From assembly GCF_013167455.1 (NCBI RefSeq), contig NZ_CP038328.1: 64,000 nt of DNA. One strand, given 5' to 3'. Below are positions 46,201-52,200 of this stretch, one piece after another (position 1 is the first letter of the stretch; each line of letters opens with the position of its first letter). The position numbers are program-made. The DNA is from Escherichia coli O157:H7. GTDB lineage: Bacteria > Pseudomonadota > Gammaproteobacteria > Enterobacterales > Enterobacteriaceae.

Positions 46201-49200
46201 GTGACTGCAGTGGCTTCCCCGCCGGCATGTACCCTCAGTTCACCGTTCTGATTTATGGTGGTGTTACCGGCAGCGCCACCTGCCTTAACAACCTGCCAGC
46301 CCCCCTCGTTAATTACCGTGTTCAGCGCAAGTCCGTCCCTGTGCACATATTGGTAACCGCCATTCAGTGTGGTATTCAGGGCCCTTCCGTGTACCGACTG
46401 GTCACCACCTGCGTAAATGAGAGTGTCACGGGCTAGCCCGGAAAATAAGATAATCTGCCGTCCATTTTTGTTGATGGTGGTGGATTCTGCTGTTCCCTGG
46501 ACCTTCTGACCCGTATACGAGTTGTCAGAATCAGGGCCGCCTTCTGCGCCGGTGTTGATGATGGTTCCTGTTGCCAGCCCGCCACTTTTAACGCTCTGGT
46601 AACCGTCGCGGTTGATAATTGTACCGGTGGCAACCCCGCCCTCATGCACCCACTGCTCGCCTCTGTTATTCAGTGTGGTGTTCACCGCCAGTCCGTTCAG
46701 GCTCTGTCCCCCGCCGTCACGAATAACCGTATCACTGGCTGTTCCCCCCTCCAGCACGACCTGACGACCATTTGTGGTGACAGTGGTGTTTCCGGCTATC
46801 CCGCCATTCTGTATCCATTGCCCACCGGTGTTTTCTTCACTGTCCGGCCCCAGTTCCAGCCCGGTACTGATGGTCATTCCGTTGGCCGTACCGAAGACAA
46901 TCTGGTTGTCATGATTTGTCAGTGTTCCATCGTTCACGGTTTCTCCCGCCTGTACAACCTTGTCAGCAGCCAGTGCCGGGACTGATGTGACAGCAGCAAG
47001 AGACAGCGCAACCGCCACACCGGCGCGTTTTCCCCGTGAGCGGGCCAGTTCGGAGGCCACCACCAGGGTGCCCGTAATGTGATTCCATACCAGCCTGTAG
47101 CTGGTGTTCAGATGTCGTTTCATCAGCTTTTCCTTACAGAGGGTGAATAAAAAAGCCGGTACCCACAAAAGTGGATACCGGCAGGTACAAAACAGAGTTA
47201 TCGGGCACAGCGATACGTCCCGGGCGTAAACGCTCTCCCCCTTCATCAGACAGAGAAGTATCAGTCTGTTGTGTGCAATTCCGTTCTGCATGATGAAGAG
47301 ATTCAGCTGCCTTTTCGCAGGCCATTAACCACTATAAACGATCGATATAAACGATCGATACCTGTTTTATCGATCGTTTTATTCTATTAACAGTAGAGCA
47401 GTCACGCAAGAGAAACAGGAGGGGCATGAGGTGTTTGTATCATGTTTTCAGTTGGTTAACGCAATGTAATCAGACATTTCCCCTGGCAGACTGTTCAGAA
47501 GAAAATCCAGTTCCATACCGCGCGGGCAACAGAGACCACCGTGTCACGGACGGCACGCAGAACTGTGCGTGCAACAGAGGCAACACAGACGCTCTCCACC
47601 GTGTCAAATATCCGGTCCACCGCACCGGTAAACTGTTCACGGGCCTGCCCCCAGACAGATTCCGTGCACAGCTCGTCCTGCAGGCGGGTCATCAGGGGAC
47701 TGGCGGCATGGTCGGGAAGCGCTGTCATGAGCGCACTGACCAGCGTATCCAGTTCCCAGCCGGTGCGGGCCGATACGGCAACAACCGGATGTACGGGCCG
47801 GAACAGCCGGAATACCGCATCTGTTTTTTCGCGAATGTTCTGTTCCTGTGCGGGAGAAGGCTGAATACCTGCCATATCCCATTCATGGCAGGGCTCTGTT
47901 TTGTCGGCCTGCGTCACCACAAACAGCACCTGCTGATGTCCCCGGTGCAGTATGTGTCGCCAGAAATACTCATCCACAGACAGGGCACGGTCATCGGCTT
48001 TAATCAGCCACAGTACCAAGTCCAGTTCAGGCAGAATGTCACGGTACAGGGCTTCATACTCTGCATCCCTGTCCCGGCTCTCGCCCACCCCGGGCAGGTC
48101 AGTGATAACCATGCTGTGACCATGGCCACTCAGACGGAAGCGCCGCACTTCCCGGGTGCCGGCGTGAACATCACTGACCGGGGTGACCTCCCCCTGAAAC
48201 AGTGCATTACAGAGTGAGGATTTACCGGCCCCGCTTTTACCCATAATGCCAATCACGGGTTCGTGACTGGTGAGTTTGCGCAGATGTTCCAGGATGTGAC
48301 GGGAAAGCGAGTAAGGCAGGGAGGAGAGCGGTTTTTCAATTGCCTCAATGGCATCAGACGGATTCATACATGTATTCCCGGTGAAAAAAGACAAAACCCC
48401 GCGCACCGGAAAGGTGGCGGGGGATTCACAACGATAATATCTGTCTGAAATTATTTAGGATGCAGGTATCTTCTGATAATCATACATCCCGAATTTTGTT
48501 CTTAATAGTTGAGTAGTGGTATTTGGTTTCCCTGAGAGAATATAAAGGTGAATCATGCTGCATTGAGTTTGATTCAATTTGTACTGAGACAAGTATCTTC
48601 ATGATTATAATCAAAAGTTGGGTGGATTGGTCTGGCGCTCATCATTTTTTCGAATAAACTCACTAATTATTGCCCCCCCCAAAGGAGATGATTTCATGTA
48701 TAATTGTGGTGAATCATATTCAGAATACGACATATCATTATCTGACGATGAAAACTATGACGATGACTATTATCGTGAACGCCCGTGTCCGGGAGAAGTT
48801 TTCGGCTATGATAATACTGAGGATAATGATGAGGCGGCATCTGATTATGCATTAAAAATAAATGAAAACTCTGATTAATACGGGGATAGCTGATAATAAG
48901 ACAATCAATGACAGATATTAATGAATAAACATAATCAGGCGCTCAATACTTGGTTTAATCTGGGCGCCTGATTAAAATCTGAGGAAACATATAATAATTT
49001 TCATCAAAATAGTATTTATGTACTAACTAAGCTGGATTTGAACCTCTATTTCTGGGTATTTGTTATCACTTAATCCATTACTGCTCCTCCTTCAGCATAT
49101 GTCGTATCCGTTGAAGGATTTACGCATATCGGTAACGTCGGCAACGAGCCAGATGCGGGTACCTGACGGGAGTGAGATCATCGTCCCCTCCCGGTCAGTT

Positions 49201-52200
49201 CACGGATCAACAGCGTGAGCAGCTCTGGCGATGGATTTTCCAGCGTCATGTTACCGTGACGGAACTCCACCTTGCAGGAGCCGGCACTGACACTGGTCTG
49301 AGTGGAAGTGGATAAAGACGGCGCAATGGCCGCCACCGGTTCTTTCTGCTCATCCGGCGTTATTTCTACAGGTAATAATTCAACGCCAGTGTCAGAAGAG
49401 GTCGTTACCTGAAGACGCCGTGATATACGCCCTTCGTTCTGCCAGAGCCTGAGCCATTTGAACAGGAGGTTATCATTGATATCGTGTTCCCGGGCAATAC
49501 GGGCAACAGAGGCTCCTGGTTGTGATGCCAGTTCCACCATACGAAGTTTGAATTCATTCGAATAGTTTTTACGAGGTTCTTTTCGCCAGTCCTGTAATTC
49601 CATACTTAGATGTCCGTCTATATCAGATGGGCGTCTAAGTTACCAATTTTCGTCTGATGGCTACATACGGCGGTCAGTTTACGCTTACTGACAACGCGAT
49701 GGCGGAGAGCATCAATGGTCTTTACAAAGCGGAGGTAATACACCGTAAGAGCTGGAAAAACCGTGCAGAAGTGGAACTGGCCACACTCACGTGGGTGGAC
49801 TGGTATAACAATCGACGATTGCTGGAAAGGCTGGGCCATACTCCTCCGGCAGAAGCAGAAAAAGCTTATTATGCTTCCATCGGAAACGATGATCTGGCAG
49901 CCTGAGTTCACAGATAAAACACTCTCCAGGAAACCCGGGGCGGTTCAAACCTGATTCTGGAAAAGGACTTTGTGGATTGTTGCTATTGCCAGTGAGATTG
50001 AATGAAGTCGTTTTAACTCGCTTTGAATACGTCTTGCCCCCAGATTTCGCTGAGAACGTAACTCCAGAATCAGAGCGACTTCGCAAGTGCCGGTTTTCGT
50101 TGATGGTGAACGCTTGGGGCGACGGCTGTGGCTTTCCAGACCAGCGATGCCCTGAGCCAGATATCTGCGCCACCATTTTACGCAATGTGGGCCGAGAAAT
50201 GCCACAGCGACGGCATACAAATCCCGCATCACCGGACGTTTCATAGAGTTTTACCCACTGTAGCCGCTGCTGAATTTCCCTGTTCATAATTTGGCATTAG
50301 TTCAGCTCAATCCCGACTTAAAAAGTCCCTACAGGATGTTCCGGACCTGAGGCACAGTTCATATCCTTATCCATAAAAAATTTAGCTATGTCTATAGCAT
50401 TAATCTTGACAAGACGACGTTAGGGCCTGGCGATGAATCATTTCCCCTGCCAGATATCCTTTGGGGTGCACCAGAACTACCGTTTTATATCTATATAACT
50501 GAAACGTCCCTCGCCATCCTTCATATTTTGATGTAGTAACACCATTCACTTTCATCTACCCCCCGTTTTATTAACATATAGTAAAAATCACCTCGCCGCA
50601 TTTTATTCTTTTGAAGTAAAATCATTTACCAGTTCACTTAAAGCTCTCTTTTGTTCATCATCATACAGAGATTGAATCCGGAATTTAATCTCTTCTGCAA
50701 CCAGTCTTGCATCGGGCTCATAAAATATTTTTGTTATTCGCTGTTTCTGATGTTCAGGCTGGTCTTCCATATTTCGTAAAACCAGATGAAATAATATATC
50801 ATAAAGTGCGCAATGCCATGAATAACCATCATTGGTTAAAATAAGCTCCCAAACCCGCTCCTGCTCGGCAATAAGCTGCAGAACAAAGGACTCAACCTGT
50901 TCTGTTTGTTCGGGGGCAACACGGTATAGCGGAGCAATCACAGCAAAAGATAGTTCATTTAACCAGGATTCCGCTTCCTTCTCGCTCCTGAACGGTGGAC
51001 AGTTTTGTATTCTTCGTTCGTATTCACGGGTAATCTGCTCCAGAATATCCTCCGGCGGTGTCAGCCACTTATTCCTGAGCAATACACTGGTTGATGGATG
51101 ACAGCTGGCTATTTCAGCAATAATTTCACGTAATGTCTCCGGGCTGAACTTCTTCAGCTGATTGTAGTGCTCCCGGGTAAAACCATGTTCATCGCATAAA
51201 AGTTGCCATGTCATTGATATACTGTTTGCCATTCCTTGCTTCATCATTAATACCTGTTACCTGAATATCAACAGACCGGTGTACCTTTTCTGAATACCTC
51301 CCCGGACGGAGTGGCAATCCCCATTCGCCTCAGCGTGGCATCTGCAGCTTTCGCCACCTCGCTGATATCCAGCGTTTCAGGTAGCGGCGGGGACGATATC
51401 TGCGCCAGACAATAATTCCGGCGCAACAACAACCACTCCCGTTGTGCTTCTGTACATTCAACATTTCCCATAACAAAAAGCCAGCGGTCAGAAGCTCTGC
51501 GCCAGCAACCAGCAGCCTCCAGTTTCTGCGCAACCATGTCTTCCACAACTTCCGGGGTACTCTTTTTCCTGCTCAAAACATTAACTCACTGAAATAATAT
51601 ACATATCTGACGGTCTCAGCGAACCGTCCATGCCGGGCTGAAATCCTCTTCCTGAAACAGCTCCGTCAGCCCGCTAATCTGTTTCAATCTGAGAACTTCA
51701 TCCTGGTCCATACCCAGCTCCGTACCAATGCGTTCATTCGTCCAGCCCAGGCGCGACAGGTCCCTGACAATATCAGACATTGAGGTTATCTGATGTTTGC
51801 CCCTGGCCCGGTTATGTCGGATGGTCGCAGCAATACGTGAGGCCTGTCCCTTTCTCTCCGGATTAATACAGACCACCGGCAGCCAGCCCTTCAGACGTTT
51901 TCCCGTACCTGCTTCCCTGCCCAGCACCTGGCGATGAAAACCATCCACCACCAGGTAATGGTTCTTTTCCTCAGACACCACCACCGGTTGTGTGAAACCA
52001 TCTTTCTCCAGTGACTGCTTCAGCAGTTTCTTCTCACCCGGCGCCATGACATTAGGATTGTAATCATTGGCCACCACCTCATCTGCTTTTACCCACAGCA
52101 CACAGTCCACTGGCTCATGTGCAAAAGGACTGACTTCATGAAGCACTCTGCGCAGGTGATTAAGGGCCTGTATGGTCTCTTCTTCTGGTCGTTCCTGGCT

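Follow-up and report, generated by a model that had tools for sequence, protein, structure and literature searches.

Nested remnants of three insertion sequences in the tellurite-resistance island of Escherichia coli O157:H7 and their probable relation to aerobactin-bearing islands

Introduction

Insertion sequence (IS) remnants at the borders of modules are a textbook feature of pathogenicity islands. Among the closest described systems is the tellurite-resistance and adherence island of enterohaemorrhagic Escherichia coli (EHEC) O157:H7, known as OI-43 and OI-48 in strain EDL933 and as SpLE1 in strain Sakai. Here, we analyzed a copy of this island in a stretch of 64,000 nucleotides from an O157:H7 genome (RefSeq assembly GCF_013167455.1, contig NZ_CP038328.1), which we call the window. 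A preliminary description, made from the sequence alone, had pointed to a cluster of transposase fragments of three IS families at positions 49178-50287. We find that three abutting IS remnants fill positions 49107-50299 (about 1.2 kb), which is slightly wider than the original span.

The three families are IS66, IS3, and IS481. Members of the IS66 family have terminal inverted repeats of about 20-30 nt that begin with GTAAGCG, and they produce an 8-bp target-site duplication. Members of the IS3 family have imperfect terminal inverted repeats of the TG...CA type.

The window shares with OI-43, OI-48, and SpLE1 the neighborhood of the cluster, i.e., cah, a GTPase gene, a PerC-family gene, and the genes encoding an IbrB-like protein, a PAPS reductase-like IbrA, and an AAA protein. 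Positions 34474-62687 are colinear with OI-43 of EDL933 at 99.9-100% identity, except for two IS629 insertions in EDL933, and a tRNA-Ser (GGA) gene at 34481-34568 adjoins the island. Judging from this colinearity and from the tRNA gene, the locus is the tellurite-resistance and adherence island of EHEC O157:H7. The EDL933 counterpart of the cluster lies within OI-43, and the 1.7 kb around it are 100% identical in EDL933 and in many other O157:H7 chromosomes. RefSeq already lists four pieces there: a tnpA, a 75-nt tnpB pseudogene, an 'integrase core' pseudogene, and a frameshifted helix-turn-helix (HTH) pseudogene. The feature is thus ordinary and already known, since hundreds of O157:H7 genomes carry pseudogene annotations for it, and it has little importance in itself. 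The analysis yields, as by-products, a map of the three remnants exact to the base together with their nesting order, a concrete mechanism for the presence or absence of the aerobactin genes iuc/iut in related tellurite-resistance islands, which hold the aerobactin operon between direct IS3 ends at this very joint, and the recurrence of the IS66 stub at the cargo border of many islands.

Differences of this kind between islands have been noted before. The tellurite-resistance islands of O145:H28 strains differ mainly in transposase genes and in iucABCD/iutA, one strain being devoid of iuc/iut (PMC9144400), and the aerobactin island SHI-2 is rich in partial transposases (PMC7545054). For the joint studied here, we found statements on gene content in the literature and no description of a mechanism.

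We are fairly confident that the cluster is an inert stack of three nested and truncated ISs, and that it represents the single-copy, collapsed state of islands that carry aerobactin at the same place. In this reading, it sits on the border between a conserved end module proximal to the tRNA gene (cah and the YeeP-like GTPase gene) and a variable cargo, here the ibrAB-like block.

Anatomy of the three remnants

Three transposase fragments are visible in a six-frame list of open reading frames (ORFs) and in the raw sequence of positions 47000-53000. Their families were assigned by searches with hidden Markov models (HMMs) of Pfam and NCBIfam, with matches far beyond chance. The borders were located by a megablast search of positions 48900-50600 against 5,426 complete E. 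coli genomes, and the extents and identities were obtained by comparison with fetched intact reference copies of each IS. The HMM matches, together with identities to intact elements of 94.3%, 100%, and 98.3%, place the fragments in IS66, IS3, and IS481, respectively. The presence of three families is thus confirmed, and the HTH ORF to which the preliminary description gave no family name is the TnpA of IS66.

The IS66-family remnant is ISEc47-like, lies on the minus strand at 49107-49688, and corresponds to nt 1-582 of about 2532. The identity of 94.3% is that of an ungapped alignment with the 582 nt proximal to the left inverted repeat (IRL) of an intact 2532-bp copy (L006, 1551-4082). This copy has 24-nt inverted repeats, a tnpB of 351 nt, and a tnpC labelled by RefSeq as 'IS66-like element ISEc47 family transposase'. 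The 24-nt IRL of the remnant (49665-49688; GTAAGCGTAAACTGACCGCCGTAT on the minus strand) is intact and identical to the IRL arm of the reference (L006, 4059-4082), which pairs there with the arm of the right inverted repeat (IRR) at 1551-1574. It is followed by an orphan tnpA on the minus strand (49178-49603), the only intact gene of the cluster, which encodes an HTH accessory protein of 141 aa (WP_000422760.1, 'IS66-like element accessory protein TnpA' in RefSeq). This ORF, already recognized as an orphan HTH accessory gene, matches the NCBIfam model of IS66-like accessory TnpA (NF047595) with 87.6 bits, for a cut-off of 74, and the Pfam model HTH_Tnp_1 with an E-value of 2e-14. The fragments had been said to have no partner ORFs, which is wrong as stated, since tnpA is accompanied by a tnpB stub of 25 codons (75 nt, 49107-49181, minus strand). 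The same bases are annotated in EDL933 as the RefSeq pseudogene 'IS66 family accessory protein TnpB, missing C-terminus'. The remnant has in common with the family the terminus GTAAGCG, the 24-nt IRL, and a tnpA followed by an overlapping tnpB, but everything past nt 582 is missing, including tnpC and the IRR, and no tnpC occurs anywhere in the window. Hence, the order tnpA-tnpB-tnpC is not preserved, and the piece is the remnant of a family member rather than a functional element. Thousands of IS66 copies match only 49107-49688 (query 208-789), and none of the intact E. coli copies among the matches listed is more than about 94% identical to the remnant.

The IS3-family remnant, of the IS629/IS1203 group, follows on the plus strand at 49689-49947 and corresponds to nt 1052-1310 of 1310. 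These 259 nt are 100% identical to the end of an intact copy of 1310 bp (L007, 1950-3259), whose inverted repeats are 25 nt long, and 98.5% identical to copies labelled by RefSeq as IS1203 family, including one on plasmid pO157 of Sakai. As in the former family, thousands of copies match only this segment (49689-49947, query 790-1048). The C-terminal end of an OrfB on the opposite strand, also part of the preliminary description, is real: the ORF at 49657-49905 (plus strand, stop at 49905) matches rve_3 with an E-value of 6e-11 and covers positions 311-369 of the 369 of the IS3 transposase model. The 25-nt IRR (49923-49947, plus strand, TCTCCAGGAAACCCGGGGCGGTTCA) is intact, ends in CA, and is identical to the IRR arm of the reference (L007, 3235-3259), which pairs with an IRL arm at 1950-1974. 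While the remnant shares these 3' 259 nt and the IRR with the IS629/IS1203 group, it lacks OrfA, the frameshift pseudoknot, most of OrfB, and the IRL. Accordingly, neither the orfA-orfB frameshift nor the DDE catalytic domain of the IS3 family is present, as only the rve_3 tail is left, and a structured RNA scan of 47000-52500 gave no AL1L pseudoknot region of IS3 in the remnant.

The IS481-family remnant is ISEc18-like, lies on the minus strand from 49948 to about 50299, and corresponds to nt 29-379 of 1020. It is 98.3% identical, over 352 bp and with one gap, to an intact copy of 1020 bp (L013, 1609-2628; inverted repeats of 25 nt), 97.4% identical to another copy (L011), and 90.6% to a third (L012) that RefSeq labels ISEc18 family. 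A set of IS481 copies smaller than those of IS66 and IS3 matches only 49948-50288 (query 1049-1389). The N-terminus of the transposase is split between two overlapping ORFs on the minus strand (49787-50287 and 49945-50244), which cover positions 1-104 of the 284 of the model in two reading frames. This agrees with the frameshifted IS481-like N-terminus reported earlier. The +1 frameshift is found at 50176-50179, where the plus strand reads TTTT (four A on the coding strand, three in intact relatives), and RefSeq notes the gene as 'frameshifted'. The additional base is the single gap in the alignments to the three intact copies, and it is also seen against an unshifted copy at another locus (L008). 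The N-terminal HTH and the leucine-zipper region are kept, whereas the DDE domain and both inverted repeats are gone, which leaves no single transposase ORF with HTH and DDE domains between inverted repeats. In short, the remnant shares 90.6-98.3% nucleotide identity over nt 29-379 with ISEc18-like elements, from which it differs by being truncated at both ends and frameshifted. About 12-18 nt before the start codon of the transposase, the homology fades out. A diverged IRL at 50300-50330 was considered and ruled out, as the 25-nt IRL (TGTGTGATTCATAG...) is missing in the alignment with the three intact copies. The claim that the fragments have no intact inverted repeats thus holds for IS481, but not for IS66 and IS3, which keep one repeat each.

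The unshifted copy just mentioned (L008, 4944-5351) is a second remnant of the same IS481-family element. It belongs to the O169 O-antigen cluster of strain Res13-Sevr-PER07-33, retains its IRL, and is located between an ISAs1 pseudogene and wzx.

Nesting order and inertness

The ends of the megablast matches pile up at identical bases, which gives two directly observed and sharp junctions at 49688/49689 and 49947/49948. At the first, the intact IS66 IRL abuts nt 1052 of IS3. At the second, the intact IS3 IRR abuts nt 379 of IS481. An intact terminus set against the interior of another IS indicates insertion into that IS. From the termini that remain intact, we infer the order IS481, then IS3, then IS66. 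An ISEc18-like IS481-family element would already have been in place when an IS3 element of the IS629/IS1203 group inserted into it, and an IS66-family element would subsequently have inserted into orfB of an IS3 copy. Deletions would then have removed IS66 past codon 25 of tnpB, the 5' 1051 nt of IS3, and, from IS481, the part past nt 379 and the first 28 nt. The arrangement in strain H3 provides independent support for this order: the IS3 copy beside the same IS481 remnant runs there in the 5' direction past nt 1052 to nt 271, with no IS66 inside, and is interrupted only by a group II intron. This intron, which carries ltrA, occupies 1950-5217 of L002 and 2305-4929 of L015.

None of the remnants can transpose, because a catalytic transposase gene and a pair of ends are both missing. 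Realistically, the cluster has a passive effect, as a short stretch of homology for rearrangement and recombination.

Comparison with aerobactin-bearing islands

Strains E2865, 6629, and 20AR0300 have sister islands in which we directly observe the order cah, GTPase gene, truncated IS66, 259-bp IS3 end, iutA-iucDCBA-shiF, IS3 nt 271-1310, truncated IS481, 214-aa ORF, PerC, IbrB, and IbrA. They have the same two outer junctions as the window, and between them 11 kb, made of iutA-iucDCBA-shiF and a second IS3 copy, enclosed by identical 259-bp IS3 ends in direct orientation. Like the IS-bounded aerobactin modules known from SHI-2/SHI-3-type iuc/iut islands and from the O145:H28 tellurite-resistance islands, the sister islands carry shiF-iucABCD-iutA between IS remnants, and they do so exactly at the joint of the window. 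Unlike all of these, the window has no aerobactin gene and only a single, collapsed IS3 end.

Positions 46001-49947 of the window are 99.92% identical to one side of the arrangement in E2865, and positions 49689-54000 align with the other side, with zero mismatches in 49689-51924. E2865 has two copies of the 259 bp, with no difference between them or from the single copy of the window. The window is therefore the sister arrangement minus the interval between two direct IS3 ends, exact to the base. Homologous recombination between two direct IS3 copies yields such a product; it would delete the aerobactin interval and leave the collapsed joint. The most likely origin of the collapsed state is hence IS3 by IS3 recombination with loss of aerobactin, and we favor loss over gain as the direction of the change, as a preference rather than a proven polarity. 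Among the 5426 genomes, the junction between the IS3 IRR and the iutA flank was found in 230 and the collapsed arrangement in 269.

Two further observations concern these islands. In positions 51925-53975, the window and E2865 differ by 68 mismatches in the ibrB- and ibrA-like genes, and the change at 51924/51925 marks another recombination boundary, located within the right-hand block. In strain H3, a deletion within the aerobactin form fuses iucB to cah, with loss of iucCD-iutA, the IS66 stub, and the GTPase gene.

Several points weigh against our interpretation. The family names of the elements are RefSeq labels. Each element is one end short, leaving no target-site duplication to compare, and the complete nested intermediate was found in no genome. 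The point of the IS3 by IS3 crossover cannot be mapped, given that both 259-bp copies of E2865 are identical, and the integration of an excised IS3-aerobactin circle into the collapsed site gives the same two structures. Finally, the IS66 stubs of different islands differ by 8-13% in sequence, for about 2.5% in the flanking backbone, despite sharing the left junction. A simple vertical history does not account for this divergence; gene conversion or crossovers involving other IS66 copies have to be invoked, and repeated events of this kind fit the data.

The circle just mentioned leads to the reverse polarity, where the collapsed form is ancestral and the sister islands acquired aerobactin from a circular molecule, made of IS3 and the aerobactin genes, by recombination with the 259-bp IS3 remnant. 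Homologous recombination is reversible, the two forms are about equally common (269 and 230 genomes), and the collapsed form is most simply explained by one IS3 insertion into IS481 and one IS66 insertion into this same IS3 copy. Yet, the circle that is needed, in which nt 271-1310 of IS3 join the iutA flank, is exactly what excision from the two-copy form yields, and this form must therefore have existed first somewhere. Furthermore, the single O145:H28 strain without iuc/iut among carriers reads as a loss (PMC9144400), and the iucB::cah fusion of H3 is a further deletion within the aerobactin form. This polarity is possible, but we consider it the less probable direction.

Exchange of modules at the IS66 remnant

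The preliminary description saw in the cluster a recombination scar that separates the Ag43/YeeP block from the ibrAB-like and helicase block, and took the island to be probably a mosaic of at least two acquisitions. We counted each junction with 120-bp queries that span it. The junction between the backbone and the tnpB stub is present in 780 of the 5,426 genomes, i.e., about 14% of the complete E. coli genomes have the IS66 stub. The junction between the IS66 IRL and IS3 was found in 555 genomes, the one between the IS3 IRR and IS481 in 460, and the complete 1.7-kb arrangement, counted from a coverage of 80% upwards, in 269. The junctions are separable, each of them occurring independently, and the site is a recombination joint.

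The blocks on both sides have other partners elsewhere. The unit made of cah, the GTPase gene, a 60-aa ORF, and the IS66 stub, always with the identical break point in tnpB, is found next to cargo of six or more kinds: ibrAB, aerobactin, a type I restriction-modification (R-M) system, a cyclic oligonucleotide-based antiphage signaling system (CBASS), a methyltransferase with a DEAD helicase, and colibactin. To the right of the stub, strain N-01 (L004) has an IS30 fragment and the type I R-M system, RM10740 (L005) a transposase fragment and CBASS, EA13 (L018) the methyltransferase and DEAD helicase, TK3046 (L019) the colibactin island, and E2865 (L010) aerobactin. The CBASS operon of RM10740 (L005, 7608-12763) has its dncV split by IS1A.

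In strain Esc14, the right side is that of the window (IS66 IRL, IS3 end, IS481 remnant, and ibrAB block), whereas the IS66 piece is longer and the left flank is different. Out of 16 mismatches between Esc14 and the window, 15 fall in 49138-49342 and one in the next 1358 bp (binomial P of about 5e-12, for an interval picked after viewing the data). This clustering directly places a crossover inside tnpA of this related locus.

Such data bear on the idea of a seam, according to which the cluster joins two independently acquired blocks, Ag43/YeeP and ibrAB/helicase. The other partners of the cah-GTPase-IS66 stub, the differing genome counts of the junctions, and the crossover signature in tnpA of Esc14, where the ibrAB block is joined to another left flank, all speak for it. 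So does CFT073, which has an ibrAB block with none of the three IS pieces. However, E2865, 6629, and 20AR0300 hold both blocks in one island, with 99.9-100% identity around the joints, parted only by the IS3-bounded aerobactin interval. As both blocks are already together there, the immediate event that made the joint would have taken place within one island family. Moreover, the nested termini point to insertion into pre-existing IS copies rather than to end-joining of foreign blocks. We therefore find it doubtful that the cluster is a seam. Most likely, the joint dates from the loss of a module by members of a single island family, or conversely from its gain, and it is not direct evidence of two acquisitions; a joint without aerobactin, in islands of one family, describes it best. 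The idea of a mosaic was right in spirit, inasmuch as modules are exchanged at the remnants.

The spacer that follows the cluster (50300-50561, 262 bp) is non-coding and belongs to the right-hand block; the IS481 remnant precedes it, and the 214-aa ORF of the ibrAB-like block follows. It was seen only together with both of these neighbors (457 genomes), and the homology to other ibrAB-type islands, such as that of CFT073, begins only at about 50562. We considered that it might be a truncated homolog of the gene that CFT073 has in this position, and rejected this for want of protein or DNA similarity.

Retention of the orphan tnpA

The recurrence of the stub raises the question of its role. It could be a fixed part of the cah-GTPase end module, with its IRL, intact tnpA, and 25 tnpB codons, and serve as a portable cassette of homology for cargo swaps, in which case the orphan TnpA might be under selection. 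We regard this proposal as rather unlikely.

Still less probable, and in our view very unlikely, is that tnpA was kept for a function of its own, as an HTH regulator or as a factor acting on IS66 ends, the stub being a functional part of the cah-GTPase module. In favor of it, the stubs of 780 among the 5426 genomes share one break point in tnpB and adjoin six or more types of cargo. The window, RM10740, EA13, and TK3046 all have an intact tnpA, the stretch from the IRL to its start codon is intact as well, and the ratio of nonsynonymous to synonymous substitution rates (dN/dS) between stubs is 0.15. On the other hand, tnpA is frameshifted in N-01. The stubs are also much more diverged (dS of 0.37) than their flank (about 2.5%), which suggests gene conversion from active IS66 copies, with the low dN/dS reflecting selection on the latter. 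Across copies, the dN/dS of tnpA ranges from 0.15 to 0.55, in line with a history in active ISs or with gene conversion.

Lastly, that the three pieces form one intact composite element with terminal repeats can be dismissed, in agreement with the earlier view: a search of the whole 64-kb window with the intact reference copies matched only the three known pieces, with no other segment of these elements and no second IS copy to bracket them, the outer ends are the interior of tnpB (49107) and of IS481 (about 50299) and carry no terminal repeats, and the sole two inverted repeats present come from different families.

Other features of the region

The island copy of the window differs from OI-43 of EDL933 in that it lies on the ghrA/csg (serX) side, is free of both IS629 insertions, and has an uninterrupted cah ORF. 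The IS629-type insertions of EDL933 map to positions 36501-36505 and 58060-58065 of the window, and one of them splits cbtA. The cah ORF spans 44274-47291, and the EDL933 record marks cah as frameshifted.

A scan of 47000-52500 with the Rfam models of structured RNA gave a single match, outside the cluster. It corresponds to IsrC (family name 'IS102 RNA'), a known small RNA of the module, located between the YeeP-like GTPase gene and cah (47142-47377, minus strand; 77 bits, for a gathering score of 46).

The 60-aa ORF of the end module (48696-48878, plus strand, WP_000282125.1) encodes a conserved, hypothetical, and very acidic protein. On its 3' side lies a GC-rich hairpin, AATCAGGCGC...GCGCCTGATT, at 48943-48975. 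The ORF accompanies the GTPase gene and the IS66 stub in all related islands examined.

In the O157:H7 strain Z892, a fresh IS1203/IS629 copy is present within the 1.7-kb query region around the cluster, and IS activity at the locus therefore continues.

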